Shown here one piece after another: positions 9,461 to 62,839 of a DNA stretch of 64,000 nucleotides; positions within the stretch are counted from its first letter, which is position 1; every line of letters starts with the position of its first letter. The translations under genes and the position numbers were made by a program. The notes beneath the pieces are model-generated. The model saw nothing but the letters and a program-made list of their open reading frames with translations, was not told the origin of the DNA and did not search any database. This stretch comes from a bacterium (GTDB lineage Bacteria > Joyebacterota > Joyebacteria > Joyebacterales > Joyebacteraceae), in NCBI GenBank assembly GCA_025774245.1, contig JALGWI010000032.1:226-64225 (forward strand), given 5' to 3'.

Positions 9461-9467
9461 AGCGCGC

Positions 9468-16305: not shown

Positions 16306-16326
16306 CGGAGGCCTCCGCTCCGCGGC

Positions 16327-18462: not shown

Positions 18463-18571
18463 GCCTGCCTCCTGAAGCGTTCCGGAACGCGCGCCTCCCG
18501 GGGCGCGGAGTCGCCGCGTCGGGACCCCACGGGTGCGGGCCGGCGACGAGTCGCCGCCGGCCCGCCCGATC

Positions 18572-19768: not shown

Positions 19769-19800
19769 GCTTCCCTCCCCCGTTCGACGGACCGCCGCCG

Positions 19801-44123: not shown

Positions 44124-44400
44124 CCCCACGGTCCGGGTGTAACAATGCGGCTTCGGCCACGCCGCAATGCGTGCCAGACTGCAAAGACTGTGCCACGTGA
44201 CAGGGAGTGCCGCGCCCGGCGCGGGGCCCGTGGGCCCGTCAGGAGGAATCGGGAGAGGCTCCGAGGATCGAGGGATTCGGACCGCCGGGCGGGGCTCGCG
44301 GATGACGCGCCCGGTGTCAGCGCTCGGGAACGGGGGCGGCGTGAAGAACGCCACGTTGTCGGCCCCGATGACGAGGGGCCGGTCAGACGGTCGTGTCTTC

Positions 44401-44794: not shown

Positions 44795-44823
44795 AGTATA
44801 TGCAGTCCTCTTGTCTCTGTCAA
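44795..44823 (-). promoter_or_regulatory. Sigma70-type promoter of the tRNA-Gly/Cys/Leu operon
   Basis: Minus strand TTGACA-N17-TATACT, 20 nt upstream of tRNA-Gly; the -35 hexamer overlaps the glgA stop codon. Confidence 0.6.
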
Positions 44824-46331
44824 GATGTAAGCCTCCGCGAGCGCCGGCTCGGGGCCGCTTCGCGCGCCCGCTCGTACAGACCGGCGTACTTCGCCGCCGA
44901 GGCCCTCCAGCTGTAGTCGAGTGCCATCCCCCGTGCCATGAGCCCGGCCCAGGCCCGGGCCTCGCCGTGCGCCTTGACCGCGCGGGCGACGGCCGAGAGC
45001 ATCGCCACGGCCGTGTAGTCCTGGAAGACGAAGCCGGTCCCCGTGTCCGACGCGGGCTCGTAGTCCTCCACGGTGTCGGCGAGCCCTCCCGTCGAGCGGA
45101 CGATGGGCACGGTGCCGTACCTGAGGCTGTACATCTGGTTCAGGCCGCACGGCTCATACCGGGACGGCATGAGGAACATGTCCGAGCCCGCCTCGATCCA
45201 GTGCGCGAGCTGGTTGTCGAACGTCAGGTGGGCCGCGACGCGCTTCGGGTGCCGCTCCGACATGCCCTGCAGGAACTCGTGGTACTCCTGCTGTCCGGTT
45301 CCGAGGATCACGAAGTTCGCACCGAGCTCGAGGACCGAGCCGGCGGCCTCCCGCAGGAGGTCGAACCCCTTCTGGTCGGCGAGCCTCGAAACGATGCCGA
45401 TCAGAGGCGTCGACGGGTCCCCGTCGAGCCCCGACCGCTCCAGGAGCGCCTGTTTGCACGTCGTCTTCCCCATGAGGTCGCCGGGCGCGTAGTTCTCGGG
45501 GATGAGCTCGTCGACGCGCGGATCCCACACCGAGTAGTCGACGCCGTTCAGGATGCCCACGAGCCTGCCGTCGGCCCGCCGCTCCGCGAGCACCTCCTCG
45601 AGACCGAGGCCGTACTCGGGCGTGCTCGAGATCTCGACGGCGTAGCGCTCGCTCACGGTGTTGACGAAGTCGGCGAGCTCGATTCCGACCTTGAGCGAGC
45701 TCACGCTCCCGTGGAACTCGAACGGACTCCCCGGGATGCCGAGTTCCTCCGAGAGCCCGATCTCGGGAAGGAGTTTCCTGTCGAAGAGCCCCTGGTAGCC
45801 GAGGTTGTGGATGCTGAAGATGATCCCCGGCTTGCCGATGCGGGCGTCCTCGTCGTGGAGCTCCTGGAGGTAGGCCGCCACCATGGCGGTGTGGTGGTCG
45901 TTCAGATGGACGGCGTCGGGCCGGGGCGCGACCTCTCGCATCGCGAGAATGAGCGCCCGCGAGAAGAGCGCGTACCTGAGCGGCTCGTCGGGATAACCCT
46001 CCCCCGTCGCCGGATCGACGTAGATCCCCTCTCGTCCGAAGTACCCCTCGTGTCCGATGAAGTAGACGGCCACGCTCTCGGCTCCGGGCATTCGCCCCTC
46101 GTAGAGCGTGACCTCCTCGTCGTGGTCGCCCATCGGCACGGAGAGCGGGCCAAGTCCCTCGACCTCGCGGATGCCGTAGGCCTCGCCGTCGATCGATGCG
46201 TACCTCGGGAGAAAGACGGCCACTTCGTGTCCCATTCCGGCCAGTTCTTTTGCGAGCGCCCCCACGACGTCGGAGAGACCTCCGACGCGGGCGAACGGTG
46301 CAACCTCCGCAGATGCCATCACTATTCTCAC
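44820..46331 (-). CDS. glgA: Glycogen synthase (GT5, ADP-glucose type)
   Basis: GTG start (MRIVMASAEVAPFARVGGL) with AGGAGGAG upstream; KTGGL-type motif, ...SRLADQKG..., ...MPSRYEPCGL... signature. The ORF's 107-aa 5' extension is non-coding. Confidence 0.9.
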   Translation of the reverse strand: MRIVMASAEVAPFARVGGLSDVVGALAKELAGMGHEVAVFLPRYASIDGEAYGIREVEGLGPLSVPMGDHDEEVTLYEGRMPGAESVAVYFIGHEGYFGREGIYVDPATGEGYPDEPLRYALFSRALILAMREVAPRPDAVHLNDHHTAMVAAYLQELHDEDARIGKPGIIFSIHNLGYQGLFDRKLLPEIGLSEELGIPGSPFEFHGSVSSLKVGIELADFVNTVSERYAVEISSTPEYGLGLEEVLAERRADGRLVGILNGVDYSVWDPRVDELIPENYAPGDLMGKTTCKQALLERSGLDGDPSTPLIGIVSRLADQKGFDLLREAAGSVLELGANFVILGTGQQEYHEFLQGMSERHPKRVAAHLTFDNQLAHWIEAGSDMFLMPSRYEPCGLNQMYSLRYGTVPIVRSTGGLADTVEDYEPASDTGTGFVFQDYTAVAMLSAVARAVKAHGEARAWAGLMARGMALDYSWRASAAKYAGLYERAREAAPSRRSRRLTS

Positions 46332-47347
46332 GAGACCGTCTCCTCCTGCCTGATCTCCACCTCTCTCAGGTAGTTCGCGGCTTCCTCGGGCGGCGTCGGG
46401 TTGATGTAGAAACCCGAACCCCACTCGAAGCCCGCCACCTTCGTCAGCTTGGGCATGATCTCCATGTGCCAGTGGTAGTACTTCAGGTCGCGCTCTCCGG
46501 CGGGGCTCGTGTGGACGATGAAGTTGTAGGGCGGGTCCCCGAGCGCGACGTTGATTCTCGTCAACGACTCCTTCAGGATGAGCGCCAGGTCGTGCCTGGC
46601 CTCCTCGTCCATGACCTCGAACGAGGGGTGGTGGCGGATCGGGAGGATCCACGTCTCGAACGGGAACCGCGCCGCGAACGGCTCGATCGTCACGAACCGG
46701 TCGTTCTCGCAGACCACCCTCGTCCTGGTCCGCTGTTCCTGAGCGACGATGTCACAGAAGACGCAACGCTCCTTGTAGCCGTAGTACTTCTTGCTGCCGC
46801 CGAGCTCCTCGATGAGCCGTTTCGGCAGGATCGGAAGGGCGATGAGCTGCGAGTGAGGGTGCTCGAGCGAGGCGCCGGCGGCGTTCCCGCGGTTTCTGAA
46901 GAGCTGGATGTACCGGAACCGCGTGTCTCCCTGCAGGTCGATCATGCGCTGCTGGGCGGCCTCGAGCACGAGCTCGATGTGCGGAAGCGGAAGGTCGGCG
47001 AAGTCGGCGTCGTGGTCCGGCGTCTCGATGATCACCTCGTGGGCGCCGACGCCGTTCATCTTGTCGTACATCCCCTCGCCGGCGCGGTCGACGTCGCCCT
47101 CGATCGCGAGCGCGGGGAACTTGTTCGGAACGACCCTCACCTGCCAGCCGGGGCTGTCCGGCGGGCTCCCGTCCTCCCGGTAAGCCAGAACCTCGGGCGG
47201 GGTCTTGTCCTCGTTCCCGTAGTCGAACGGGCAGAAGCCGCCCTTCTTCGTCTCCGCTTCGTGCGCGAAGTCGGTCGGGCGTTTTCCCCGTTCGGTGGAG
47301 ATGATGACCCAACGTCCTAGGATGGGGTCCTTCCTGAGCTGCGGCAT
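46328..47347 (-). CDS. GalT-family hexose-1-phosphate nucleotidyltransferase (HIT-like; galactose-1-P uridylyltransferase / ADP-glucose phosphorylase-like)
   Basis: 339 aa from ATG (GAGGAG upstream); active-site HPHSQ (H-x-H-x-Q), Cys/His zinc ligands (CPFD...CVFCD); stop overlaps the glgA GTG (GTGA). Confidence 0.75.
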   Translation of the reverse strand: MPQLRKDPILGRWVIISTERGKRPTDFAHEAETKKGGFCPFDYGNEDKTPPEVLAYREDGSPPDSPGWQVRVVPNKFPALAIEGDVDRAGEGMYDKMNGVGAHEVIIETPDHDADFADLPLPHIELVLEAAQQRMIDLQGDTRFRYIQLFRNRGNAAGASLEHPHSQLIALPILPKRLIEELGGSKKYYGYKERCVFCDIVAQEQRTRTRVVCENDRFVTIEPFAARFPFETWILPIRHHPSFEVMDEEARHDLALILKESLTRINVALGDPPYNFIVHTSPAGERDLKYYHWHMEIMPKLTKVAGFEWGSGFYINPTPPEEAANYLREVEIRQEETVS

Positions 47348-47531
47348 GCCTTCTCCTCGGTTTCCTCCCCCGGGACCCTTCACGAGGCCGGCGGGGTCAC
47401 AAAACGTCAACGACTAGCAGAATCGCGCGGCCGAGTCAAGCCGCCTCCTCGGGGTCCCGAAAGGGGTCCCCGGGGCCCCCGTCGCCTGGTGAGCCGGGTC
47501 CACCAGCGCGGGGTCCGGCCAACGCGCCGGC

Positions 47532-48596
47532 CTACCCTCCGCCGATGAGCCCCTTCTTCCTGAGCTCGGCCACGACGGTCCTGACGTCGCGCGCCCGGTC
47601 CTTCGGACAGACGAGGGTGACCCCGTCCGTGCGCGCCACGACCACGTCCCGCATCCCGATGACGGCCACGACGCCCTCCTCGGAGTAGACCACGCAGCCC
47701 TCCGAGTCGACGATCACCGAGCGGCCCTCGGCCACGTTCCCGTCCCCGTCCTCCTCCCAGATCCGCGCGAGCGCCGGCCAGGCTCCGACGTCGTCCCAGC
47801 CGATCTCGCACGGCACGACCGTCACGTGATCCGCCTTCTCCATCACGGCGTAGTCGACCGAGATGTCAGGGACTGTCTCGTAGTACTCCTCGATCTCCGC
47901 CTCGAAGCCGACCGTGCCGGGCACCTCCGTGACGCCGGCGAGCGCTTCCGCGACCGGAGCGAGGTGGCGGCCGATCTCCTCGAGGAACCGGTCGGCGCGC
48001 CAGATGAAGATCCCGCTGTTCCAGTAGTAGCCCCCGTCCAGGACGTAGCGCGCGGCCGTCTCCCGGTCGGGTTTCTCGACGAACCTGTCGACCTGCCGGA
48101 CGCCGTCGACGCCGGCCGGCCCGCCTGCCTTGATGTAGCCGTACTCGGTCTCCGGCCTCGTGGGACGTATCCCGAGCGTCACGAGCGCCCCCTCGGACTC
48201 GGCCTCCTCGAACGCGAGCGAGATCGCCCGCCGGAAGGCGTCGGCGTCGAGGATGACGTGGTCGGCCGGCAGAACGACCATGGCGGCGTCCGGGTCCGCC
48301 GCGAGCAGCACGCTGGCCGCCAGCGCGATCGCCGGCGCTGTGCTCTTCCCGACGGGCTCACCGATGATCCGCTCGGTCGGAACCGGCTCGAGCTCCTCGA
48401 GGATCTTCTCCCGGAGGGAAGCGCCGGTGAGGACGAGCGTGTCGTCGACCGAGACGAGCGGGGCGATCCGCGTGAGCGTCTCGGAGACGAGCGACGAGCG
48501 GCCGATGAGCTTCAACAGCTGTTTCGGCCGCTCCCGGGTGCTCATCGGCCAGAGCCTCTCGCCCCAGCCCCCGGCCAGAATTACAGCGTACCTCAT
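47532..48596 (-). CDS. Mannose-1-phosphate guanylyltransferase (nucleotidyltransferase domain only, no PMI cupin)
   Basis: 354 aa; AVILAGGWGERLWP (G-x-G-x-R-L), ...EKPD...GGYYWNSGIFIW.... Confidence 0.8.
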   Translation of the reverse strand: MRYAVILAGGWGERLWPMSTRERPKQLLKLIGRSSLVSETLTRIAPLVSVDDTLVLTGASLREKILEELEPVPTERIIGEPVGKSTAPAIALAASVLLAADPDAAMVVLPADHVILDADAFRRAISLAFEEAESEGALVTLGIRPTRPETEYGYIKAGGPAGVDGVRQVDRFVEKPDRETAARYVLDGGYYWNSGIFIWRADRFLEEIGRHLAPVAEALAGVTEVPGTVGFEAEIEEYYETVPDISVDYAVMEKADHVTVVPCEIGWDDVGAWPALARIWEEDGDGNVAEGRSVIVDSEGCVVYSEEGVVAVIGMRDVVVARTDGVTLVCPKDRARDVRTVVAELRKKGLIGGG

Positions 48597-48675
48597 GGGT
48601 CGGAAGCTCCTCTTGCGACCTCGCGCATCGCGCCCTACCCCGTCGTGCGTCGCCGAGCGGCGCGTCCCGGAGCGG

Positions 48676-49563
48676 TCAGTGCGACCGCGAGAGACAGAAG
48701 TCAGCGATCTCCCGCAGCATCCGGGTCTCGCCGTCCAGCCGGTCGAGCGCCTCGTGCGCCGTCCGGACGAATCCGGCGGCCGCGTCCTTCGCCGTCGCAC
48801 TTCCGTGAACCGTCACGAACGTGATCCTGCCGGCGTCCTTCCCCGTCTCCTTGCCGACGGTCTCGGGATCCCCCTCCGCGTCGAGGAGATCGTCGACGAT
48901 CTGGTAGGCGAGCCCGAGACATCGCGCGTAGTCCGAGAGCGGCTCGAGCCGGGCCTCGTCGGCGCCCAGGAGGATTGCACCGCCCCTCGCCGCGGCCACG
49001 AAGAGCGACGCGGTCTTCCTGCTCTGGATGTACTCCAGCGTCTCGGGATCGACGGCCGAGTCTCCGGCGACCTCGAGATCGACGTGCTGGCCGCCCACCA
49101 TGCCGCCGGCCCCGACGGCCGCGGAGAGTTCCCTGATCGCCTTCGCCAGCGCCCTCTGCCCGGACGCGACGTCGATGCCGTTCTCGACGACGAGCCCCAC
49201 GGCGTGCATCAGAAGATCGTGCGCCGCGAGAATCGCCGTCGCGACGTCGAACTGGCGGTGCGTCGAGGGCCGTCCCCGTCGGGTGGGTGCGTCGTCCATC
49301 GACGGGAGGTCGTCGAGGACGAGCGAGGAACAGTGCACGCACTCGACGGCGCAGGCGGCCTTCGTGACGAGATCCGGGTCGTGCCCGAGCGCCCCGGCGG
49401 CCGCGCGGACGATGATCGGCCGGAGCCTCTTGCCGCCCCCGAGGGTCGCGTACCTGATCGCCTCGTGGATGCGCCTGGGATGCACGTCGCTCGCGGGGAG
49501 GCAGCGGGCAAGCGCCTGCTCGACGATCGCCTTCTCCTCCTCGAGCACGTAGAGAACGTCCAA
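48676..49563 (-). CDS. Second trans-polyprenyl diphosphate synthase (IspA/GGPPS family) embedded in the polysaccharide locus
   Basis: FARM LVLDDLPSMDDAPTRRGRPSTH, SARM YQIVDDLLD; TTG start with AAGGAG upstream (start uncertain). Confidence 0.75.
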   Translation of the reverse strand: MDVLYVLEEEKAIVEQALARCLPASDVHPRRIHEAIRYATLGGGKRLRPIIVRAAAGALGHDPDLVTKAACAVECVHCSSLVLDDLPSMDDAPTRRGRPSTHRQFDVATAILAAHDLLMHAVGLVVENGIDVASGQRALAKAIRELSAAVGAGGMVGGQHVDLEVAGDSAVDPETLEYIQSRKTASLFVAAARGGAILLGADEARLEPLSDYARCLGLAYQIVDDLLDAEGDPETVGKETGKDAGRITFVTVHGSATAKDAAAGFVRTAHEALDRLDGETRMLREIADFCLSRSH

Positions 49564-49625
49564 GGACCCACGCTCCTTCTTCGACCTCGGGGCCGTCGTC
49601 AGCCCGCCGGGATTCGCCGGCGCCG

Positions 49626-50723
49626 CTAGAAGCCTCTCAGCAACGTGTAGTATATCGCCTCGGTGTGGAGCGTCACACCGTCCCAGTCGTAGGTCTCGAG
49701 GACGTGCCGCCTGGCGCGGTCGCCCATGGCGAGGCACCTGTCGGGCTCCGCGAGGAGCTTCCCGAGCTTCCCTGCGAGATCGTCGGGATCGCTCTGACGG
49801 AAGGTCATCCCGCAGTCGCCGATCACCTCGAGGTTCTCCGCGATGTCGCTCGTCAGGCAGCAGTTGCCGAAGCTCATGGCCTCGAGGAGCGCGATCGGAA
49901 GGCCCTCGATGTCGGAGGGCAGGACGAATATGCGGGCGTTCGAATAGAGCTCGTCGAGGAGGTCGCCGTAGACGTATCCGGTGAAGCGCACCTTGTCACC
50001 GCCCATGGCGTGCAGACTGTCGACGTATTCGCTCGAGAAGCTCGTCCCGCCGGCGATGATCAGCTCCGCGTCCGTGTCGAGCTTCTTGTACGCATCGAGG
50101 AGGTAGTGAGCGCCCTTCTCTGGCACGAGACGGCCCACGAAGAGTATGTAGCTCCCGGGCTCGATGCCCATCTCCCGGATCTTCTGCGCGTCCCGCACGT
50201 GCGGCAGGACCGTGCCGTTCGGGATGTAGGTGACGGTGACGTCGCGGCTCCTCTGGAAGTACTCGCGGAGCGCCTTCGAGACGGCGATCGTCCGGTTCGG
50301 GTAGTGCACGGCCGTGTACTCGCACCGCCTCAGGATCCAGGTCGCCACCGTCCCCCACTTCTCCCGCTGCCAGTCGAGACCGTGCACGGTCGCGACCGCC
50401 TTCATCCCCCTGAAGCGCGGGAGACTCGCGAAGAGAGACGGGCCGAGCGCGTGGAAGTGGACGATGTCGTAGTCGCGGGCCAGGATGTGCGGGATCGCGA
50501 AGCCGCAGTGCGTCGCCGTGTCGAGGTGCTTGGTCCGGACGCTCGGAACGTGAGCCAGCTTCACCCCCCGGTACTCCCCCCGCATCTTCGTGTAGTAGGG
50601 CCGGCAGTAGACCGTGACCTCGTGCCCCCGTTCGACGAGACGCGTCGCGAGCTCCTCGACGTGGCGCTCGATGCCGCCGTACGTGGCCGGGATCCCCTTC
50701 TGGCCGAGCATCGCTATCTTCAA
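49626..50723 (-). CDS. GT4-family glycosyltransferase
   Basis: 365 aa; TTG start overlapping the upstream TGA (TTGA) giving MKIAMLGQKG; C-terminal E-x7-E motif region (...VLPSDIEGLPIALLEAMSFG...). Confidence 0.8.
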   Translation of the reverse strand: MKIAMLGQKGIPATYGGIERHVEELATRLVERGHEVTVYCRPYYTKMRGEYRGVKLAHVPSVRTKHLDTATHCGFAIPHILARDYDIVHFHALGPSLFASLPRFRGMKAVATVHGLDWQREKWGTVATWILRRCEYTAVHYPNRTIAVSKALREYFQRSRDVTVTYIPNGTVLPHVRDAQKIREMGIEPGSYILFVGRLVPEKGAHYLLDAYKKLDTDAELIIAGGTSFSSEYVDSLHAMGGDKVRFTGYVYGDLLDELYSNARIFVLPSDIEGLPIALLEAMSFGNCCLTSDIAENLEVIGDCGMTFRQSDPDDLAGKLGKLLAEPDRCLAMGDRARRHVLETYDWDGVTLHTEAIYYTLLRGF

Positions 50724-51940
50724 TGGGTGACCCTCTCGTAAATGGCCATGATCTGCTCGAAGTGGCGGTCGGGTCCGTACTCCCGCTCGACACGAGCCCT
50801 CGCGGCCTTCCCCATGTCGACCGCGCGAGCGCGGTCGCCCCACAGCTCCTCGAGCCTTCCCGCGAGCGCGCCGTCGTCGCCCGGCGGGAAGAGCAGACCC
50901 GTCTCGCCGTCGACGACGAGCTCCGGGATGCCGCCGATCGAGGAACCCACGACGGGCTTGCCCATCGCGCATGCCTCGTAGACCGTCAGGGGCGAGTTCT
51001 CGTAGCACTCCGACGGCACGACGACGCACGTGGAGCCCGCGACTATCGACTTGAGCTCGTTGCCGTTCAGGTACCCGACGAACTCGACGTCCGCGAGACC
51101 CTGCTCCGCCGCGACCCTCGCGAGCTCGTCGGCGAGCGGTCCGTCACCGACGACCTTGAATGGGATCCCCCTGGCCCGCGCCAGCGCCTTCATGAGCGTC
51201 TCGAGTCCCTTCCCCGTGGAGAGGCGGCCGACGTAGACGGCGTACCCGTTGGAGACGTACGTCGGTTCGTACTCGTCGAGAGCGATCGAGTACGGAAGGT
51301 GGACGATCTGCTTCCTGTCGATGCCGTGTGCCACCATCCGTTCGAGTAGCTGCTGGCTCGGCGCTATGAAGAGATCGACGTTCCTGACGTACGTTCCCAT
51401 CACCTTGTGCAGGTAGGCCTCCAGGCAGACGAGCGCGCTGGGGGCCAGCGAGTCCCTCATGCAGCGGTGCACGCAGGCCCGGTAGTACCGCCAGTGCCCG
51501 CACCGCTCGCAGGTCTTCCCGTCGAGGAACATCTGATAGTTCGGACAGACGAGCTTGTAGTCGTGGAGCGTCTGAACGACCGGGACGCCCTTCGCCCGGA
51601 GTCCGGCGATGATCGACGGCGACAGCTGATGCGCAATGTTGTGAAGGTGCGCGACGTCGGGTCGCGTGCGGTCGACGAGCGCTTCGACCTTCTTCCTCGC
51701 CTCGACCGAGTAGAGCAGGCGCGCGGCGGCCCGGATCGCGTCGAGGGGCCCGCCGGCGCCGTCGAACGACTCGTGCGAGACGAAGAGGTCGGAGTGCTCC
51801 GACGGCTCGTTCTCCTCGTGCTCCATCGCGAACGGGACGGTCGCAACGCCACGCTCCTCGAGGATGCGACCCAGCTCGAAGAGGTAGCGCTCGGCTCCGC
51901 CCTTGACGAAGTAGTACTTGTTCGCGACGAGCACCTTCAT
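50720..51940 (-). CDS. GT4-family glycosyltransferase
   Basis: 406 aa; MKVLVANKYYFVKGGAERY..., C-terminal ...VVPSECYENSPLTVYEACAMGKPVV... (E-x7-E). Confidence 0.8.
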   Translation of the reverse strand: MKVLVANKYYFVKGGAERYLFELGRILEERGVATVPFAMEHEENEPSEHSDLFVSHESFDGAGGPLDAIRAAARLLYSVEARKKVEALVDRTRPDVAHLHNIAHQLSPSIIAGLRAKGVPVVQTLHDYKLVCPNYQMFLDGKTCERCGHWRYYRACVHRCMRDSLAPSALVCLEAYLHKVMGTYVRNVDLFIAPSQQLLERMVAHGIDRKQIVHLPYSIALDEYEPTYVSNGYAVYVGRLSTGKGLETLMKALARARGIPFKVVGDGPLADELARVAAEQGLADVEFVGYLNGNELKSIVAGSTCVVVPSECYENSPLTVYEACAMGKPVVGSSIGGIPELVVDGETGLLFPPGDDGALAGRLEELWGDRARAVDMGKAARARVEREYGPDRHFEQIMAIYERVTH

Positions 51941-51974: not shown

Positions 51975-52955
51975 TCATCGGCTCACCTTTGTGTCAAGCC
52001 CGAGGAGCTTCGCGCCGGCGATCCAGGCGAACGGCCTGAGCGGCCTCCGCCGCATCGGCGGGGAGACCGTGCAGATCATCCAGCACTGATGCTGGCAGCT
52101 CGCGACCGCCTCGCGGACATCCGTCCGCGTTCGGCGCTGGATCTCCTCGAAACTCCCGTCCTTCACGTTCCCCATCTTCGTCCCCGAGATGTTGCAGGGG
52201 TGGACGCCGCCCCACGGATCGAGGAAGAAGAAGTCGGTCCCTGCCCTGCACGCCAGCCGGCGCGGCTTTCCGCGCACGTAGTCGGCGAGTCCCCTCATGT
52301 AGTAGGCCTTCGCCCAGTCGCGCGGGCGCTTCGACGCGAGCAGGTCGTCCATGACCCGGCCGATCTCGCCAACGGCCTCATCCGACTGCGGCCGCTCGGC
52401 GTCGTGCGCCCCGAAGAAGATCGGCGAGCTGTGCGCCGCGCTCGCGGCGAACTCGAGCCCGAGATCGCTCGCGAGGTCCCTCACGGCTTCGAGCTGCCCG
52501 GGGTTGCCCTCGGTCGACGTCGCGGCGAGCCCGAGGTCGGCAACGCCGGCCGCCTTGAGCCTCCGGGCCGTCTCGATGGCCTTCTCGTACGCTCCCGGCA
52601 CGCCGCGGATCTCGTCGTGGAGCGGCCCGGCCGCGTCGACCGAGATCCGCACCGCCACGTCGTCCATGCGGGAGATCATCTCCTCGATCCTGGACGGCAT
52701 GAACCCGTTCGTCGAGATCACGATCCGCGCGTCGGGACAGGCCTCCCGCATCACCGCGACGATCTCCACGAGATCGTCGCGCAGGAACGGCTCGCCCCCG
52801 CTGACGTTGATCGAGCGGAGCGAACGCGGGAGCCAGCGGTAGTCGGAAGGCGTCAGCTCCCTCTCCGTCTCCGCGTCCTTCCGCCAGATGTCGCACATGG
52901 CGCATCTGGCGTTGCAGCGGTACGTGACGGCAGCGACGCACCCGACCGGTCCCAT
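51975..52955 (-). CDS. Radical SAM enzyme (with Cys-rich C-terminal SPASM/twitch-like region) inside the glycosyltransferase operon
   Basis: 326 aa; CNARCAMC (CxxxCxxC) at residues 14-21, GGEP SAM-binding motif, C-terminal ...CRAG...HPCNISG...CQHQCWMIC; ATG overlaps the upstream GT4 TGA (ATGA). Confidence 0.75.
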   Translation of the reverse strand: MGPVGCVAAVTYRCNARCAMCDIWRKDAETERELTPSDYRWLPRSLRSINVSGGEPFLRDDLVEIVAVMREACPDARIVISTNGFMPSRIEEMISRMDDVAVRISVDAAGPLHDEIRGVPGAYEKAIETARRLKAAGVADLGLAATSTEGNPGQLEAVRDLASDLGLEFAASAAHSSPIFFGAHDAERPQSDEAVGEIGRVMDDLLASKRPRDWAKAYYMRGLADYVRGKPRRLACRAGTDFFFLDPWGGVHPCNISGTKMGNVKDGSFEEIQRRTRTDVREAVASCQHQCWMICTVSPPMRRRPLRPFAWIAGAKLLGLDTKVSR

Positions 52956-54175
52956 CAGGACCGGTCCTCGGGCGCCCGACCGTTGAACAGAGCGTTGTAG
53001 GCCTTGATGAGCTCCCTGCCCGTGTGCTCCCAGGAGAGCTCGCTCTCGATCCTCTCCCGGTTCCTCTTGCCCATCTCCTCCCGCAGCTCCTCGTCGTCGA
53101 GGAGCTGGACGATCCTCTCGCCGAACTCGATCTCGTCGTTCGGATTGGCGTAGAGCGCGCCGTCCTGCGCCGAGTAGCGGCTCTCCTTGAGGTCGAACGA
53201 GACCATCGCCTTTCCGAACGTCATGTACTCGAGGACCTTGTTCATCGTGGAGACGTCGTTCAGCGGATTCCTCGGATCGGGGCAGACGCAGAGGTCGGCC
53301 GTCGACAGGTAGCGCTCGACGTCCTCGTCGGAGATGCGCCCGGTCATCTCGACGTGATCCTTGAGGCCGAGGTCGTCCCTCAGAGCCTTGACCGCCTCGA
53401 ACGAATCGCCGCCGCCGATGAGCACGAAGTGGACGTTCTTCCTCTTCACGACGTCGATGACGTGTCGGGCGGCGCGCAGGAGGTAGTCGAGTCCGTCCTG
53501 GGGCGCCATGACCCCGAGGTAGCAGATGAGCGACTTCCTCCCTCGCTTGAGCTCCGGGACCGGCTCGACGGGACTGAGCCCGGAGAGCCTCGGCCCGCTC
53601 CGCACGACGAAGACCTTGTCGGCCGGGAACTTCCCGACCTCGATCGCGTGCTCCCTGTACGAGTTGTTCGTGGAGATGACCATGTCGGCCGACCGGTAGG
53701 TCGCCCACTCGAGGAGCCTCAGGAGCCAGAAGTTCCCCGCGGGTCGGCCGCCGAACCGCGACAGGTAGAGCTCGGGACAGAGATCGTGCTGGTCGTACAC
53801 GAACCTCGAGCGCCTGAGCACCTTGAAGATGAGGCCGATGAGGAAGAACGTGTCGGGCGGATTGCAGGCGTGGATCGCGTCGAAGCCCGTCTCCCTGCCC
53901 ACGCGGAACGCCAGGCCGAGGCTCTTGAACCAGCAGTACGGGAATTCCCAGGCGTACGACAGCTTCGTCGTGGTCGGCGGAGGCGGCTTGTACCGGTAGA
54001 TCCTGATCCCGTCGATCTCCTCGTACGGCTCCTGGTACGTGGTCGCGCCCTGCGGGCAGATCACGCTGACCTCGTACCCCGAGGCCTTGAGCGTCGTCGA
54101 CTCCAGCCAGACGCGCCTGTCGAACGGCACCGGCAGGTTCTCGACGATGATCAGGATTCTCTTCTTGTCTTCCAC
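52955..54175 (-). CDS. GT4-family glycosyltransferase
   Basis: 406 aa; MEDKKRILIIVENLPVP...; C-terminal ...VCPDPRNPLNDVSTMNKVLEYMTFGKAMV... retaining-GT motif. Confidence 0.8.
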   Translation of the reverse strand: MEDKKRILIIVENLPVPFDRRVWLESTTLKASGYEVSVICPQGATTYQEPYEEIDGIRIYRYKPPPPTTTKLSYAWEFPYCWFKSLGLAFRVGRETGFDAIHACNPPDTFFLIGLIFKVLRRSRFVYDQHDLCPELYLSRFGGRPAGNFWLLRLLEWATYRSADMVISTNNSYREHAIEVGKFPADKVFVVRSGPRLSGLSPVEPVPELKRGRKSLICYLGVMAPQDGLDYLLRAARHVIDVVKRKNVHFVLIGGGDSFEAVKALRDDLGLKDHVEMTGRISDEDVERYLSTADLCVCPDPRNPLNDVSTMNKVLEYMTFGKAMVSFDLKESRYSAQDGALYANPNDEIEFGERIVQLLDDEELREEMGKRNRERIESELSWEHTGRELIKAYNALFNGRAPEDRS

Positions 54176-54227: not shown

Positions 54228-55553
54228 CTACCACGAAAGCCCGACGTACTGGCCGTTCACGGCCGCGGGATCGTCCACGATGCGGACGAGGTCGATCAGG
54301 ATCTGGTCCGGGCGCATCTTGCCCGGCACGCCCTTGAATTCGTCGGCGGCGTTGGCAACGACCAGGACGTCGGACCGCTCGAGGACCTCGTCGATCGTGT
54401 CGGCCTTCAGCCGCTCCGCGTAGGGAAGCTCGTGCTCGAGGAACCCGAGATTGGACCCCAGGAGCGCCTCCCACGAGATGTTCCTGTCGTAGATCGAGAG
54501 TTCGTAGCCCTTCCCGATGAGCGTGCTCACCACCTGGATGATCGGGCTCTCGCGAAGGTCGTCGGTGCCGGCCTTGAAGCTCATCCCGAGCACCCCGACC
54601 TTCCTCTTCCCGGTCCGCCTGATGAGCTCGATCGCGCGATCGATCTGCAAGCGGTTCGACGGCATCGCCGCCCTCAAGACCGGCGTCTCGACGCCGGTCT
54701 CGTGGCTCATCCGCACGATCGCCCTCAGGTCCTTCGGGAGGCACGACCCGCCGAACGCGAACCCCGGCTTCAGGTAGTACGGCGACAGGTTGAGCTGCGT
54801 GTCGAGGCAGAAGATCCGCATGACCTCGTGGCTGTCCGGGACGCCGAGCGCCTGGCAGAGGTTGCCGATCTCGTTGGCGAAACACACCTTGATCGCGTGG
54901 AAGCAGTTGTCGGCGTACTTCACCATCTCCGCCGCCTTCATGTCGGTCCGCACGAGCGGCGCGTCGATCGGCTCGTAGAGAGCCGCGAGCACGTCGCCGG
55001 CCCTGCTGCCGCTCGCGAGCTCTCCGATGACGATCTTCGGCGGATGGTAGAAGTCCTGCACGGCCGAGGCCTCGCGAAGAAACTCCGGGTTGAAGCAGAC
55101 GCCGAACCTCTCGCCCGCCTTCTTCCCGGACTCCCGCTCGAGAATGGGCACGAGCTCCGTCTCGACCGTTCCGGGAGGTATCGTGCTCCGGAAGACGACC
55201 GTGTGGAACTCGTCCTTGCCCTTGATGACCTCGGCAATCTGCTTGCAGACGCGCCGCGTGTAGTCGAGGTTCGGGCGCCCGTCCTTCTGCGAGGGCGTTC
55301 CCACGCAGACGAGCGAAACCTCGGTCCGCATCACCGCGTCCTCGTAGTCCTCGGTCGCCGTGAGCCTCCCCTCCTCCACACTCCTCTTGATCAGCTCGTC
55401 GAGCCCGGGTTCCACGATCGGGCTCTCGCCCTTCCGGATGGGTTCGAGCTTCTTCGGGTTGACGTCGAGCCCGACGACACTGTGCCCCATCTCTGCGAGA
55501 CACGCCGAGGACACGCAACCGACATATCCGAGACCCAGTACGCTCACTCTCAT
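54228..55553 (-). CDS. GDP-mannose 6-dehydrogenase-like nucleotide-sugar dehydrogenase (AlgD/UGDH family)
   Basis: 441 aa; MRVSVLGLGYVGCVSSACLAEMGH (AlgD-like N-terminus), catalytic Cys FAFGGSCLPKD. The 5' 500 aa of the ORF is overprint of the neighbouring gene. Confidence 0.8.
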   Translation of the reverse strand: MRVSVLGLGYVGCVSSACLAEMGHSVVGLDVNPKKLEPIRKGESPIVEPGLDELIKRSVEEGRLTATEDYEDAVMRTEVSLVCVGTPSQKDGRPNLDYTRRVCKQIAEVIKGKDEFHTVVFRSTIPPGTVETELVPILERESGKKAGERFGVCFNPEFLREASAVQDFYHPPKIVIGELASGSRAGDVLAALYEPIDAPLVRTDMKAAEMVKYADNCFHAIKVCFANEIGNLCQALGVPDSHEVMRIFCLDTQLNLSPYYLKPGFAFGGSCLPKDLRAIVRMSHETGVETPVLRAAMPSNRLQIDRAIELIRRTGKRKVGVLGMSFKAGTDDLRESPIIQVVSTLIGKGYELSIYDRNISWEALLGSNLGFLEHELPYAERLKADTIDEVLERSDVLVVANAADEFKGVPGKMRPDQILIDLVRIVDDPAAVNGQYVGLSW

Positions 55554-55573: not shown

Positions 55574-57916
55574 TCATTCGAAGTCGTTCGCCAGTCGATT
55601 CGGGACGGACTCGAACTCGACCGTCCGCTCTCTCTCGGTCCAGTTCTTCACATCCACACCGTACGCCTCGCGCCGTCCGTTCCGTTCGACGACGAGGCCG
55701 AGTGCTCCCTCGAAGAGGCCCGCATCCGGATCCTGCGGCGGCGCTCCGAGGAGACAGAGATCCCTCCGCTGCCCCGCGACGGCCTCGACGACCGCGCCTC
55801 GACGCCACCCGCCCGTCCGGCAGTCGACCGCGACGCGGTCCGCGCCGGCGCCGTCCGCTCCCGAAAACGGGACGATCGCCGTGACGATCGTCGCCGGGAG
55901 CGTGACGCTCCCGCCGATCGCGACCGCCGGAGCCGGGACCTTTGTCCCGAAGACGGGCGAGACCCACCCGGCGGGCGGATCCTCCCGGCCGCTCTCGATC
56001 TCGATCGCGAGCCCGGGAGGAAGCCACGTCCGAAACGCGATCCCGCTCCCGTCGCCCCCCGCGAACGTGAGGGGCTCGCCGTCGACGGCCTCGTAGCCGG
56101 CCGGCAGCTGCAGCGTCGCACCGACCTCGTGTGAGCCTTTGCCCTCGAGGACGTCCACGACGATCCAGTAGCCCAGCTTCCCGAAGACGACCGTCCGCCT
56201 GTGGCGGACGCCGAGACGCCGGACGTAGCCGTCGTGCGCACCCTCGAAGAGGTCGAAGTGCCGTCCGGTCGCCCACCTCACCTGCTCCGGCCGCGCCCGG
56301 CGCCCCCAGATGAAGGGGCCGAGCATCTCGGACTGGTCGGTCCGGTCGACCGTCACCGTGTTGTGCGCGCGCGTGCTGCGGAAGTGGTCGCGCCAGAGCC
56401 GGTCGCGGTGATAACAGAACGTCCCGGGGTCCACGAGAACCCACTCGCCCTCCACCGCGATCGAGAGCGAGAGGCAGTCCGCGTGACCGTGGGCGGCGAT
56501 CGACGGGTACCCGAGGGGACCGCAATCGATCACGCCGTGCTGAGTCGCGGAGGCCGGGACGAAATAGCCCCCCTCGGGAAACGCCGCCGAGGCCGTACCC
56601 TCGTCGCGCTCCCCGCGAGACGATTCGCGCGTATCGAGCCACGCCAGGACCGCTTCGGGTCCGAAGAGCCAGAGCGCCGGCTCGAGGTCCGGCTCCCTGA
56701 GGAGCCGGGGCACGGGTCGTCCCGCCGCGAGGGCGGCGCACGCTGCCGCGCGCGCGCACTGCCTGCCGCGGACGTCGGAGAGATCGTAGGCCCGGCCGCC
56801 GTCCTCGTCGCCGATCGCCGGCGGAGTCCAGCCCGGACCGCCCGTTCTCTCGAGAAAGACCCCCATCCTGCCGGCCAGTTCCTCGAGCGCCGGCGACAGG
56901 GGCTCGCCGGAGGCCCGTCCGACCGCGAGTACGGTCAGACAGAACTCCAGCACGAATGCCTGATAGTGCAATGTCTGTTCCCGGCAGACGCCGTCGGAGG
57001 TCACCTGCACGGGAACGTCGCGCTCCAGAAGCGCCCTGCCCTTCCGGGCCCATCGGGAGGCTCCCGAGAGGAACGGAAGCGCCGTGCCTATCGCGAAGAG
57101 CCCCGCCGCTTCGCCGATCAGGTGGTTGTTCTTCGACGAGGCATAGATTGATAAATTATCACAGATGTGATTGGCCTGCAACGACACACTGACGAGGAGC
57201 TTCCCGGCATCGCCCTCCCGCACCCCGGCGAGTCCGACGAGGTCGAGCGCCATCCCCCATGAAATGAGGCGGATCCCCAGTTCAAGCGCGCTCGTCCAAT
57301 TGACTCCGTGATAGGGCGGGTTCGCATCGATCCACGAGCGGATGTGATTCCACACCGCCGTCGCGTATCGCGAGTCGCGCGTCAGGCGGTACGCGCGACC
57401 GAGCGTCACGAGGTGGTGGTGCCGGTTGAGCTCCCAGACGTGCCGCGGATCGCCGAGACCTTCCGCGAAGCGGTAGTCGACGTCCGTCCAGAACGACATC
57501 GGCCACTGCCGGCCCGTTTCGGGATCGCGGTTCCAGTCGGGTGCGTTGCCGACCTCGAGGGCCGAGAAGCCGTAGGCCGGGATCGAGCCCGCGAGGATCC
57601 GGTCGGCGGCCACCGTGATCTCCCCGGCCGTCACGCCGATCGCAGCGAGCGAGCGAGCCATCTCCTCGTCGTTCGCAGGGAGCGCGAGGATGCGCTCGCG
57701 CCGCGTCTCCAGGAGCTCCTCCGCAGACGGGCCTCCGCCCGCCAGCACGGCGCGCGGCAGGACGGAGGAGAGCGGAGGCGCGATCTTGCGTCCTCTCCCG
57801 CGCGTCAGGCGGTGCACCGAGTTTCTGACCTCCCGCGCGGCGCGCAGACCGATCTCGGCGGGCGTCATCGCCCGGCTCCTCATGAGAAGCCAGAGGATCT
57901 TCGAACGCTTCCTCAT
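55574..57916 (-). CDS. Heparinase II/III-family protein (polysaccharide lyase/epimerase-like)
   Basis: 780 aa from ATG (GGAGG 4 nt upstream); alpha/alpha-toroid plus beta-sandwich family signature (WNHIRSWIDANPP...VNWTSALELGIRLISW..., ...NHLIGEAAGL...HGHAD...). ATG overlaps the upstream GT4 stop (ATGA). Confidence 0.7.
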   Translation of the reverse strand: MRKRSKILWLLMRSRAMTPAEIGLRAAREVRNSVHRLTRGRGRKIAPPLSSVLPRAVLAGGGPSAEELLETRRERILALPANDEEMARSLAAIGVTAGEITVAADRILAGSIPAYGFSALEVGNAPDWNRDPETGRQWPMSFWTDVDYRFAEGLGDPRHVWELNRHHHLVTLGRAYRLTRDSRYATAVWNHIRSWIDANPPYHGVNWTSALELGIRLISWGMALDLVGLAGVREGDAGKLLVSVSLQANHICDNLSIYASSKNNHLIGEAAGLFAIGTALPFLSGASRWARKGRALLERDVPVQVTSDGVCREQTLHYQAFVLEFCLTVLAVGRASGEPLSPALEELAGRMGVFLERTGGPGWTPPAIGDEDGGRAYDLSDVRGRQCARAAACAALAAGRPVPRLLREPDLEPALWLFGPEAVLAWLDTRESSRGERDEGTASAAFPEGGYFVPASATQHGVIDCGPLGYPSIAAHGHADCLSLSIAVEGEWVLVDPGTFCYHRDRLWRDHFRSTRAHNTVTVDRTDQSEMLGPFIWGRRARPEQVRWATGRHFDLFEGAHDGYVRRLGVRHRRTVVFGKLGYWIVVDVLEGKGSHEVGATLQLPAGYEAVDGEPLTFAGGDGSGIAFRTWLPPGLAIEIESGREDPPAGWVSPVFGTKVPAPAVAIGGSVTLPATIVTAIVPFSGADGAGADRVAVDCRTGGWRRGAVVEAVAGQRRDLCLLGAPPQDPDAGLFEGALGLVVERNGRREAYGVDVKNWTERERTVEFESVPNRLANDFE

Positions 57917-59154: not shown

Positions 59155-60332
59155 GAGGCCCGTCTCTTCTCGCGGTAGAGCTGCTCGTAGAGCCGAACGA
59201 CTGATCCGATGCAGGCCTCGATGCTGAACTCGGACTCCACCTTGCGCCTTCCCGCCTCACCCATCTTCGCTCCCCTGTCGGGGGAGCGGAGCACCCTGAT
59301 CATCGCCTCCGCGAGCGCGTCCGTGTCGTGAGGAGGAATGAGGTAGCCGGTCACGCCGTCCTCGACCTCCTCGCTCACGCCCCCGACGTCGGTGGCGACG
59401 ACGGGCAATCCCGTCGCCATGGCCTCGAGGATCGTCAGGGGGAGGCACTCGTTGTCCGACGGGAGTATGAGGAGATCCGAGCTCGCCAGGAGATCGGGGA
59501 TGTCGCGGCGGAAGCCGGCGAAGACGACGAAGTCGGACACGTCGAGCGCCTCGGCCTCGGCGCGAAGCTCGCTTTCGAGCTCTCCCTTCCCAACGAAGAG
59601 GAGCCGCGCATCGGGGACGGCGTCGCGGACCGCGGGCGCGGCCTTCAAGGCGTGCGTGTGTCCCTTGCGCTCCTGAAGCCGCCCGACGAGGGTCGCGACC
59701 GGCGCCCCCTCCGGGATACCCAGCTCTTCCCGAACGCGCGTCGTGTCGAACTCACCCCCGAAGCGCGAGACGTCGACCCCGTTCCTGATCGCAACGATCC
59801 GATCCGGCGGGACCCCGTAGTTGTCGATGTGCATCTGGCGCGAGAGCTCCGACACCGCGATCGTCCGGTCGACGAGCCGGTTGGTGAGCCGGACGAGGGC
59901 CGTGATGATCCTGCTTCCGAACGGGAAGTGCGACTCGACCGAGCGCGCCAGGTGCTCGGTCGTGACGACGACACGCGCGCCGGCCGGGCGAGCCGCCGCG
60001 ACCGCCGGGAGTATCGTGCGAGGGTCGGTCTTGTTGAAGTGGACCAGCTCGTAGCCGCGGAGGTGCTTCCAGCCGACGAAGAGCCCGACGGGATTGTACT
60101 CCTTGGTCGGGAGGAACCGCGTCACGCGGATCCCGCGCTCCTCCAGGTCCTCGACGTAGGGATCCATCACGCGGCGGTCGGAGCAGAAGACGTGCGGCTC
60201 GAATCCGACCCCGCGGAGTCCCTCGACGAGCTGTGAGAGGTAGATCTCGGCCCCCCCCCACTCGGTGGGGTCGGTCAGGAGGGCCAGCCTCGTGGGCAGC
60301 CCCTCGGGCATTGTGCGGCCGTCCCCCATCAT
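59151..60332 (-). CDS. GT4-family glycosyltransferase
   Basis: 393 aa; ...LILPSDNECLPLTILEAMATGLPVVATDVGG...; start/stop overlaps of ATGA type on both sides. Confidence 0.8.
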   Translation of the reverse strand: MMGDGRTMPEGLPTRLALLTDPTEWGGAEIYLSQLVEGLRGVGFEPHVFCSDRRVMDPYVEDLEERGIRVTRFLPTKEYNPVGLFVGWKHLRGYELVHFNKTDPRTILPAVAAARPAGARVVVTTEHLARSVESHFPFGSRIITALVRLTNRLVDRTIAVSELSRQMHIDNYGVPPDRIVAIRNGVDVSRFGGEFDTTRVREELGIPEGAPVATLVGRLQERKGHTHALKAAPAVRDAVPDARLLFVGKGELESELRAEAEALDVSDFVVFAGFRRDIPDLLASSDLLILPSDNECLPLTILEAMATGLPVVATDVGGVSEEVEDGVTGYLIPPHDTDALAEAMIRVLRSPDRGAKMGEAGRRKVESEFSIEACIGSVVRLYEQLYREKRRAS

Positions 60333-62055: not shown

Positions 62056-62805
62056 CTAGAGCCGCTCGTAGAAAAACCGGGGGATGTAGAACCGCCGGCG
62101 GTTCAGGACCGAGCCGAGGACCCTGGCTCCCGCTCCGTCGAGAAGATCGAGGGCGTGCTGAACGAGCTCCCGCTTTGTGCGGCCGGAGCGGATCACCACG
62201 ACGACACCGTCGACCCTGCGGGAGAGCTGGATCCCGTCGGAGAACGACAGGAGCGAGGGAACGTCGAGCACGACGCACCCGAACCTCCTGCGCAGCTCGG
62301 CCAGCATCCCCTCCATCCGCGAGTGCGCGAGCACCCGCGGCGAGGACACGACCGGCCGTCCCGCCGTCATCAGGGTGAGCCTGGGCACGCTGGTCGGTCT
62401 GAGGCATTCCGACAGCGGCGCATCGGCGAGGATGTGGTCGGAGAGCCCGGGGTCGCGCGCCGTTCTGAAGATCTCGTGGACCGAGGGCCTCCTCATGTTG
62501 GCGTCCACGAGGAGCGTCTCTACCTCGCCCTGTGCCGCCAGCGACGCGGCGAATTCACGGGCGACGAGGCTCGTGCCTTCTCCCGAGACGGACGCGGCGA
62601 ACATCACCGTTCGGCACTCGGACTGTGGCAGCGCGAGGAAGATCTCGGACGCCAGGGTCTGGTACTCCTCGGTGTCGTGGAACGTGAACCGGCCCGATCC
62701 CGGCGACGGCATGGATCGTCGCCCCTGCCGCTCCGGGAGATCCTGGCCGGAACGCCTCGCGCGCTCCTGCCTGGCTCTGTCCATCGCCTTCGAGATCCGG
62801 CTCAT
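62056..62805 (-). CDS. BY-kinase-like (CpsD/Wzc C-terminal ATPase-like) P-loop protein with degenerate Walker A
   Basis: 249 aa from ATG (GGGAG upstream); ...VMFAASVSGEGTSLVAREFAASLA... (Walker A with T in place of the canonical K), Walker A' ...TLLVDANMRRP..., Walker B-like ...VVLDVPSL. No TM domain and no Tyr cluster. Confidence 0.55.
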   Translation of the reverse strand: MSRISKAMDRARQERARRSGQDLPERQGRRSMPSPGSGRFTFHDTEEYQTLASEIFLALPQSECRTVMFAASVSGEGTSLVAREFAASLAAQGEVETLLVDANMRRPSVHEIFRTARDPGLSDHILADAPLSECLRPTSVPRLTLMTAGRPVVSSPRVLAHSRMEGMLAELRRRFGCVVLDVPSLLSFSDGIQLSRRVDGVVVVIRSGRTKRELVQHALDLLDGAGARVLGSVLNRRRFYIPRFFYERL

Positions 62806-62839
62806 GACGCTCCCGCCGGTCCGGACGACCACGCCCCCG

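Follow-up and report, generated by a model that had tools for sequence, protein, structure and literature searches.

A predicted twitch-type radical SAM enzyme linked to a pair of GT4 glycosyltransferases in surface-glycan loci of bacteria and archaea

To our knowledge, and in agreement with the literature that we searched, radical S-adenosylmethionine (SAM) chemistry on sugars is documented for antibiotic pathways (BtrN, NeoN, HygY, and BlsE) and not for the assembly of cell-surface polysaccharides. Here, we analyzed a 64.0-kb stretch of DNA (the window) from a contig of a bacterium of the Joyebacterota, JALGWI010000032.1, in which a gene for a 326-amino-acid radical SAM protein, called rSAM below, lies inside a polysaccharide operon between two genes for family 4 glycosyltransferases (GT4). 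From comparisons of sequence and gene order across genomes and from a predicted structure, we consider it probable that this twitch-type enzyme modifies a carbohydrate during the cytoplasmic assembly of a Wzx/Wzy surface-glycan repeat unit and that it is coupled in this role to a pair of GT4 enzymes.

Among the described enzymes, BlsE of the blasticidin S pathway (PDB 7VOB), which acts on cytosylglucuronic acid, is like rSAM in fold, in size, and in the motifs CxxxCxMC and GGEP; it also has a hairpin Cys pair in its C-terminal segment and a carbohydrate substrate that comes from a UDP-uronic acid. The CxxxCxMC variant of BlsE has been noted and mutated, and its GGEP motif is essential (PMC3715490). 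BlsE differs in belonging to a nucleoside-antibiotic pathway rather than to a surface-glycan locus, in its distal Cys motif, in having no GT4 partners, and in sharing just 18% identity with rSAM. In the aminoglycoside pathways, Cys249 of NeoN is the hydrogen donor in a sugar C-5 epimerization (PMC10991966), and the twitch epimerase HygY is described as becoming a dehydrogenase on mutation of one Cys (reference 3 of PMC10991966, as cited there). NeoN and HygY pair a twitch cluster with a separate catalytic Cys that returns hydrogen to a glycosylated substrate, which parallels the modular C-terminal cysteines of rSAM (a quartet plus Cys295). They serve secondary metabolism, they are likened to rSAM by described features and not by sequence, and the role of Cys295 is a candidate one. 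The dehydrogenases BtrN and SpeY have a single four-Cys auxiliary cluster, a truncated SPASM fold, and carbohydrate-like substrates, but they catalyze a net oxidation, align with only the first ~100 residues of rSAM (E values of ~1e-8 to 1e-5), and reach TM-scores of 0.33 to 0.42.

The best E values, in sequence searches and with Foldseek, come from SkfB, CteB, PqqE, and the sulfatase-maturating enzyme anSME, which are similar to rSAM in joining a radical SAM core to a C-terminal Fe-S domain; unlike rSAM, they have a recognition element for ribosomally synthesized peptides (RRE) or another N-terminal extension, or peptide or sulfatase partners. CteB, PqqE, and anSME, although not SkfB, further carry two auxiliary clusters on seven or more Cys, which rSAM lacks. 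Hopanoid head-group synthesis involves the glycosyltransferase HpnI, the radical SAM enzyme HpnJ, and the UPF0104 protein HpnL. This logic, in which a glycosyltransferase, a radical SAM enzyme, and a flippase-like UPF0104 protein remodel a lipid-linked sugar, is echoed by fusions of rSAM to the LPG_synthase_TM domain, but HpnJ belongs to a different family of radical SAM enzymes, of the B12-domain type, and serves as an analogy only. By analogy, rSAM may work like the twitch sugar-tailoring enzymes of antibiotic pathways, although membership in none of these groups is demonstrable.

The rSAM gene (Table 1) starts with an ATG at 52955-52953 and stops with a TGA at 51977-51975, with GAGGA ~10 nt 5' of the start codon and a third-position GC content (GC3) of 0.86 to 0.96 in its reading frame versus an overall GC of 0.68. 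Its N terminus aligns with homologs of 326 to 327 amino acids at 100% coverage. Homologs span 60 to 98% identity at full coverage, and the closest named ones, from Candidatus Eisenbacteria, are 66 to 69% identical, a similarity by which the window would probably be assigned to that phylum. An earlier sequence-only reading of this DNA had recognized a CxxxCxxC radical SAM protein here, and the ORF, its GC3, the motif at residues 14 to 21, and a match to Pfam Radical_SAM (PF04055; E = 5.7e-18, 66 bits against a cutoff of 29.5) bear this out. C14, C18, and C21 are invariant in 59/59 aligned family members, and the GGEP motif, alternating beta/alpha elements of a partial TIM barrel, and radical SAM structure matches at probability 1.0 likewise place the protein in the superfamily. 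The stop codon of the upstream gene GT4_c (TGA, 52957-52955) and the rSAM start codon share a single base (...TCC TGATG GGA...), so that the junction described in the earlier reading as an ATGA overlap is a TGATG overlap of 1 nt; homologous loci show a 4-nt form, and either form is compatible with translational coupling. The 34-nt gap that had been read between the rSAM stop and the next GT4, with its ATG at 51940, is correct.

Within the superfamily, rSAM matched 44 NCBIfam families, all far below their own cutoffs: AhbD, the best, scored 74 against 500 bits, followed by such models as NirJ (67 against 515), MftC (67 against 265), PqqE (59 against 381), SkfB (45 against 300), and MoaA (41 to 47 against 284 to 325). 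Because no cutoff was approached in this classification, which the sequence-only reading had proposed as a check, rSAM lies by these scores outside every curated housekeeping or peptide-maturase family. Housekeeping enzymes (AhbD/NirJ, MoaA, QueE, and PflA) were rejected as identities on the same sub-cutoff scores and on the presence of glycosyltransferase neighbors in every lineage examined. Homologs of cultured organisms are annotated by PGAP merely as “radical SAM protein,” and, judged by its homologs and their neighbors, rSAM belongs to a large unnamed family of glycosyltransferase-coupled radical SAM proteins.

SPASM domains have a seven-Cys pattern that supports the clusters AuxI and AuxII. 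They typically bind two auxiliary clusters, and the twitch domain, a truncated SPASM, binds one (PMC9012708). The C terminus of rSAM is Cys rich, as had been noticed, and matches Pfam SPASM marginally (23.0 bits against a cutoff of 21.5, residues 236 to 291). SPASM proper, with two auxiliary clusters, is ruled out by the presence of only five C-terminal Cys, arranged as CX17C...CX3CX3C, and no distal Cys. Twitch topology fits both the sequence and the structure model, with strands at residues 242 to 245 and 250 to 252, a helix at 269 to 285, and then C287 and C291. The C terminus is thus probably a twitch-like truncated SPASM, predicted to bind one auxiliary cluster.

The C-terminal cysteines divide into two parts that vary separately. 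All five (Cys236, -254, -287, -291, and -295) are invariant in close relatives; across the family (alignment A2 and the distant orthologs), the first four are kept or replaced as a unit, and Cys295 varies independently. The quartet comprises a beta-hairpin Cys pair and then a CX3C after a helix, and its covariation fits four ligands of one putative auxiliary cluster on a truncated SPASM. In 48 orthologs from distant loci, we distinguish three forms: the quartet with Cys295, as in the window (form A, 14/48); the quartet with Gly at position 295 (form B, 11/48), in Omnitrophota, Kuenenia, Planctomycetia, Lachnospiraceae, and Segatella; and Cys295 with the quartet lost (form C, 23/48), in Candidate Phyla Radiation (CPR) bacteria, Saccharibacteria, and uncultured Gammaproteobacteria, mostly in loci of the GHL15 type described below. 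None of the 48 orthologs, and none of the 59 sequences of alignment A2, lacks both. The association between quartet and Cys295 has a Fisher P value of 2.6e-4, which overstates independence since the sequences are phylogenetically related. Because of this either/or pattern across sequences, the quartet and Cys295 suggest themselves as alternative ways to finish the reaction.

A profile built from 23 homologs and searched against solved structures matched SkfB (4.7e-22) and BlsE (1.2e-13), followed by CteB, PqqE, BtrN, MoaA, and anSME; the BlsE match covers residues 12 to 165 and is confident over the N-terminal core alone. An AlphaFold (AF2) model from the 23-homolog alignment has a mean pLDDT of 85.7, and in it, the 326 residues are fully taken up by the radical SAM core and the twitch segment. 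When the model was compared with the PDB by Foldseek, SkfB came first by E value and BlsE by TM-score (0.68/0.67, with an rmsd of 5.5 Å); SkfB, CteB, anSME, MoaA, and PqqE ranked below BlsE by TM-score, and BtrN and SpeY were lower still.

The evidence that ties rSAM to glycan assembly is its genomic context, which we followed in 15 close genomes (60 to 75% identity) and 65 distant genomes (34 to 49% identity) from the GTDB species set. The distant genomes come from CPR/Patescibacteria, Saccharibacteria, Omnitrophota, Planctomycetota including Kuenenia, uncultured Gamma- and Deltaproteobacteria, Actinomycetes, Dehalococcoidia, a cyanobacterium, Lachnospiraceae, Methanosarcinales, and another archaeon. 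Glycosyltransferases were called orthologs at ≥150 bits, with assignment to the best-scoring window glycosyltransferase for that flank region. In 15/15 close genomes, the gene is present and its operon syntenic, and rSAM has GT4_c and GT4_d as its immediate neighbors, a result that answers the conservation check put forward in the earlier reading. Homologs from Latescibacteria-like and other Eisenbacteria genomes (45 to 49% identity) retain the order dehydrogenase-GT4-rSAM-GT4_d-GT4_e-ManC...GalT-GlgA.

Farther away, an ortholog of GT4_d or GT4_e stands in the flank in 56/65 distant genomes, and both do in 36/65. GT4_d was found in 48 of these loci, directly adjacent to rSAM in 24, and GT4_e in 44. 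GT4_c is kept in 14/15 close loci versus 2/65 distant ones and is confined to Eisenbacteria-like genomes. Across phyla, it is therefore the two downstream GT4s that accompany rSAM tightly, instead of the overlapping upstream GT4 to which the gene had been thought coupled; by these counts, GT4_d is the most conserved partner of rSAM and GT4_e the second. The dehydrogenase, ManC, and the heparinase-like gene of the operon each occur in just 2/65 distant loci. As universal partners, UGDH, the heparinase-like protein, ManC, GalT, and GlgA were rejected, since their linkage does not extend beyond Eisenbacteria- and Latescibacteria-like lineages; linkage of the polyprenyl-diphosphate synthase to rSAM is confined to Eisenbacteria.

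De novo clustering of neighboring ORFs in 67 distant loci recovered the same pair as the most frequent neighbors (GT4_d in 46 and GT4_e in 39), together with a third GT4 (20), GHL15 glycoside-hydrolase-like proteins (19), Wzy-like proteins (17), and Bac_transf priming transferases (11). Further neighbors in distant loci are Wzx flippases, Wzz, asparagine-synthase homologs, and sulfo-, acyl-, and pyruvyl-transferases, and by this gene content, the distant rSAM loci are Wzx/Wzy-type surface-glycan loci. The premise of the earlier reading, a scarcity of radical SAM enzymes in exopolysaccharide (EPS) loci, fails for the rSAM family, which is large and typically found in Wzx/Wzy loci, and across the genomes compared, the rSAM gene is no oddity of a single operon.

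Cultured organisms carry the same arrangement. In Segatella copri DSM 18205, GT4_d (33% identity), rSAM (35%), and GT4_e (38%) are consecutive, with rSAM (WP_050758626) encoded between WP_006848200 and WP_006848198, and Pseudobutyrivibrio xylanivorans MA3014 has rSAM (WP_151625889) in an EPS locus on pNP95, where a GT4_d ortholog is present too. The order in Faecalicoccus pleomorphus is priming transferase, DUF1972 GT4, acyltransferase, GT4, rSAM, GT2, GT2, Wzy ... pyruvyl transferase, and Wzx, an order that places the cassette at the start of repeat-unit assembly. Complete loci follow the order priming transferase (PGT), DUF1972-type GT4 (GT4_e), GT4_d, and rSAM.

The relatives of rSAM are spread over more than ten phyla, with abundant gut bacteria among their carriers. 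When 1.84 billion cluster representatives were searched with a profile, 1,424 proteins (50%-identity clusters) matched at E ≤ 1e-30, with nearly all of the top 150 matches full length, and at least 553 relatives are encoded among GTDB species genomes. A gut form of ~390 amino acids is extended C-terminally by ~70 residues that include extra Cys, a segment that the window protein lacks. A search with this form scored 8,000 candidates, 7,656 of them at E ≤ 1e-20; the 90%-identity clusters listed (P0270 to P0389) are 82 to 94% identical to the query and come, by source names, from Clostridia, Eubacterium, and Faecalicoccus, and one 90%-identity cluster holds 10,053 member sequences. Such uniformity points either to very strong constraint or to a capsule cassette that has recently spread by horizontal transfer among gut Firmicutes.

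Fusion proteins point in the same direction as gene linkage. Accepting fusion types present in at least two independent clusters, we found rSAM joined to GT2 domains (three clusters, P0167, P0179, and P0171), to GT4 domains (two clusters, P0170 and P0187), and to an LPG_synthase_TM/UPF0104 flippase-like membrane domain (two clusters, P0221 and P0227); fusions to GHL15 (P0163) and to a class I methyltransferase domain (P0193) are single examples, retained as such. An apparent 475-amino-acid rSAM-GT4 fusion, P0110, was discarded as an artifact, as its neighbors (ERZ25039527 contig_75672) are fragmented and the long-read assembly is likely frameshifted. The fused GT4 domains are GT4_a-like and not GT4_d/e-like, and the fusions are therefore no proof of a physical complex between rSAM and GT4_d. 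Taken together, the linkage and fusions tie rSAM functionally to glycosyl transfer at the level of genes and domains.

If rSAM does modify a carbohydrate during repeat-unit assembly, a reduced [4Fe-4S] cluster would cleave SAM, and the resulting 5'-deoxyadenosyl radical would take a ring hydrogen of a sugar. The substrate would be a polyprenyl-diphosphate-linked oligosaccharide built by the two GT4s, or a nucleoside diphosphate (NDP)-sugar that one of them uses, and the substrate radical would be resolved in one of two ways, with Cys295 returning a hydrogen atom or the auxiliary cluster accepting an electron. For the window enzyme, we tentatively favor a redox-neutral inversion of one stereocenter, that is, a post-glycosylation epimerization, because the enzyme holds both devices (quartet and Cys295), like NeoN and HygY; by this analogy, epimerization is a possibility that we would put forward rather than an outcome that we would expect.

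Several observations weigh against a role in glycan assembly of this kind. In nine of the 65 distant loci, neither GT4_d nor GT4_e was found in the flank, although five of the nine have a flank of <7 kb on at least one side, and gene linkage is unable to separate an NDP-sugar substrate from a lipid-linked one. Cys295 is replaced by Gly in the gut and planctomycete forms, and the CPR and gammaproteobacterial forms lack the quartet; neither of the two devices is needed throughout the family, and so the chemistry may differ between subfamilies. The nearest solved relatives by E value are the peptide maturases SkfB, CteB, and PqqE, and identity to BlsE is 18%. The C-terminal helix is not amphipathic (muH of 0.17), which leaves an amphipathic membrane anchor, considered as a candidate, unsupported, and the sequence shows no sign of membrane docking. 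Finally, a full-text literature search returned no paper on the family and no characterized member, and for Wzy-type glycan assembly it found no radical SAM step described.

Among other kinds of chemistry, BlsE-like action on a uronic acid, in which a glucuronosyl or N-acetylhexosaminuronosyl residue supplied via the operon 6-dehydrogenase would undergo radical 1,2-diol dehydration or oxidative decarboxylation, would account for the best TM-score, the second-best profile match, and the unusual CxxxCxMC(D) motif that BlsE and rSAM have in common (PMC3715490). The 6-dehydrogenase is encoded two genes upstream of rSAM and stays close in Latescibacteria-like loci, and the substrate of BlsE derives from UDP-glucuronic acid (PMC3715490). 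We nevertheless consider this chemistry unlikely: identity is 18%, with an alignment confident only over the N-terminal core, the C-terminal Cys pattern is unlike the C317xC319xxC322 proposed for BlsE (PMC3715490), and the dehydrogenase lies within ±10 kb of rSAM in just 2/65 distant loci. A BtrN/SpeY-type two-electron oxidation, in which a sugar CH-OH would become a ketone and the auxiliary cluster would accept the electrons, is also improbable. Characterized twitch and SPASM enzymes, BtrN, PqqE, and SuiB among them, mostly carry out two-electron oxidations in which the auxiliary cluster is the likely acceptor (PMC9012708), and a cluster-only form of rSAM (form B, with Cys295 replaced by Gly) does occur; yet about half of the distant orthologs have lost every one of the four quartet Cys in an unchanged GT4 context, analyses of neighbors in distant loci found no aminotransferase or reductase for a keto-sugar conserved with the triad, and BtrN and SpeY match only the N-terminal part of the protein.

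Substrates other than carbohydrates fare worse. Maturation of a peptide or protein, as by the maturases of RiPPs (peptides made on ribosomes and modified after translation) or by anSME, is suggested by the top sequence and structure matches, which include SkfB, CteB, and PqqE and also anSME, and systems combining a GT4 with a radical SAM peptide enzyme exist (by the name of NCBIfam TIGR04157); a change to the polyprenyl carrier lipid is suggested by the polyprenyl-diphosphate synthase encoded three genes downstream in Eisenbacteria. However, the cluster motif begins at residue 14 and therefore leaves no room for an N-terminal peptide-recognition (RRE/PqqD-like) domain that would bind a leader, a precursor gene cannot fit into junctions of 1 nt and 34 nt, and neighbor clustering in distant loci found no conserved small ORF. 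RiPP SPASM maturases (SkfB, PqqE, MftC, and sactisynthases) were rejected on these grounds and on sub-cutoff scores. The anSME role, which the sequence-only reading had rightly held less likely, was rejected because anSME is outside the top NCBIfam matches, reaches only 5.6e-7 as a PDB profile match, and needs more than the five Cys present; no sulfatase was found among the conserved neighbors of rSAM by the Pfam scan of the window or by neighbor-ORF clustering of distant loci. As the polyprenyl synthase is restricted to Eisenbacteria and the models for peptide maturases and anSME all score far below cutoffs, a noncarbohydrate substrate is quite improbable. Radical C-methylation to a branched-chain sugar, a candidate role in the earlier reading with one class I methyltransferase fusion (P0193) in its favor, is very improbable indeed: neither Pfam nor NCBIfam detects a cobalamin-binding or HemN-like domain, by which class B and class C radical SAM methylases were rejected, there is no RlmN-type feature, and the core and twitch segment wholly explain the length of the protein.

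Returning to modification of a repeat-unit sugar, a broader and more doubtful proposal is that the conserved cassette (priming transferase, DUF1972-type GT4, second GT4, and twitch radical SAM enzyme) makes, across bacteria and archaea and from the CPR to the human gut, a radical-modified core sugar, e.g., a C-epimerized rare hexose or uronate, and that interchangeable Cys295 and quartet devices set epimerization versus oxidation by lineage. This would be a founding example of such chemistry for Wzx/Wzy assembly. If true, it would add to capsule, O-antigen, and EPS biosynthesis a new enzymatic step that is widespread and faithfully linked to two glycosyltransferases. Carriers include Segatella copri, Lachnospiraceae, CPR bacteria, and relatives of methanogens, with cultured gut and rumen bacteria among them, and the either/or distribution of Cys295 and quartet would amount to a natural experiment on how twitch enzymes choose between hydrogen-atom return and oxidation.

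The window has a GC content of 68%, and from 44.8 kb to its end (64.0 kb), it is a single dense minus-strand gene array. The rSAM gene lies in a long, tightly packed minus-strand operon, in which Pfam identifies the five GT4 genes reported in the earlier reading, as well as a Wzy polymerase (Wzy_C) and a nucleotide-sugar dehydrogenase. The order of the genes in the operon tail (44820..49566) is the same in relatives. The start of GT4_e was inferred from a 361-amino-acid homolog in the related locus L001. Housekeeping genes (LeuRS, Dxs, PheT, and RNase Y) make up the remainder of the window.

Table 1. Features of the rSAM gene and its surroundings, in window coordinates
Feature	Coordinates	Strand	Basis
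rSAM, twitch-type enzyme gene, 326 aa	51975..52955	minus	ORF, translation, GC3 frame, Pfam PF04055, homologs, AF2 model
Radical SAM cluster motif, C14-x3-C18-x-M-C21 (CNARCAMCD)	52893..52916	minus	Read from sequence
GGEP SAM-binding motif, residues 53-56	52788..52799	minus	Invariant or near-invariant in alignments A1 and A2
Twitch-like segment with Cys quartet C236, C254, C287, C291	52083..52250	minus	Pfam SPASM 236-291, covariation, predicted secondary structure
Cys295, fifth conserved Cys, candidate H-atom donor	52071..52073	minus	Varies independently of quartet
Wzy_C-type polymerase/ligase	60329..61894	minus	Pfam PF04932, 3.6e-22
GT4_a	59151-60332	minus	Pfam; overlaps GT4_b by 4 nt
GT4_b	57913-59154	minus	Pfam
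Heparinase II/III-like protein, start uncertain	55574..57883	minus	Pfam Hepar_II_III_N and _C
Nucleotide-sugar 6-dehydrogenase (UDP-Glc/UDP-HexNAc dehydrogenase family)	54228..55553	minus	Pfam UDPG_MGDP_dh N, central, C; TIGR03026, 416 bits
GT4_c, GT4 upstream of rSAM, stop overlapping rSAM start	52955..54175	minus	Pfam
GT4_d, GT4 downstream of rSAM	50720..51940	minus	Pfam GT4 domains
GT4_e, DUF1972-type GT4 (Cps2T/WchF-like)	49626..50711	minus	Pfam GT4 and DUF1972; NCBIfam Cps2T, 85.8 bits, below cutoff
Polyprenyl-diphosphate synthase (operon tail)	48676 to ~49566	minus	Pfam, NCBIfam
ManC (operon tail)	47532 to ~48596	minus	Pfam, NCBIfam
GalT (operon tail)	46328-47410	minus	Pfam, NCBIfam
GlgA (operon tail)	44820-46331	minus	Pfam, NCBIfam
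GHL15 glycoside-hydrolase-like protein with FlgD_ig C-terminal domain	42111..44354	minus	Pfam; downstream of operon

Within the operon, the gene for the heparinase II/III-like (lyase-fold) protein lies directly upstream of the 6-dehydrogenase gene, and the pair recurs in Latescibacteria-like loci; in this biosynthetic setting, the protein might serve not as a degradative lyase but as a uronate C5-epimerase or in trimming. In Eisenbacteria and Latescibacteria-like genomes (L001 to L006), the polysaccharide operon still ends with GalT and GlgA, which have a GTGA-type overlap, an unusual conserved linkage of storage-glucan with surface-glycan genes. A 258-amino-acid ORF at 62056-62832 (minus strand) has no Pfam hit, and homologs with 29 to 37% identity stand by the rSAM cassette in several distant metagenome-assembled genomes (loci L023, L026, L034, L036, L037, L041, and L045); on this recurrence, it is an unannotated conserved component of rSAM loci.

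Other genes recur near the cassette in distant genomes. The 19 distant loci in which GHL15 co-occurs with rSAM include CPR and gammaproteobacterial ones. Near the cassette, L048 (13475-14893, plus strand), L005 (17387-18538, minus strand), L061, and L078 have one more radical SAM gene, which is weakly related or unrelated; the locus of the archaeon LFW-280_3_1 is an example, with a second gene of 472 amino acids. In Kuenenia, GT4_e is followed by a PF14907-type “uncharacterised nucleotidyltransferase” (L062, 13029-14090, plus strand), and the same position in Segatella copri holds a gene annotated “nucleotidyltransferase family protein” (L088, 14444-15595, plus strand), alike by annotation name; this gene is possibly one more accessory to the cassette.

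A separate block of radical SAM genes in Brachyspira hyodysenteriae was rejected as a member of the family, since its single match (47 bits, 25% identity) comes without GT4_d/e orthologs. On the 36-kb plasmid pBHWA1 (NC_012226.1; L090), positions 7270-20028 hold seven genes annotated as radical SAM/SPASM among rhamnose and glycosyltransferase genes, so here too, radical SAM genes stand in a glycan locus; this block of radical SAM and glycosyltransferase genes is reported to be correlated with virulence (PMC4267127).

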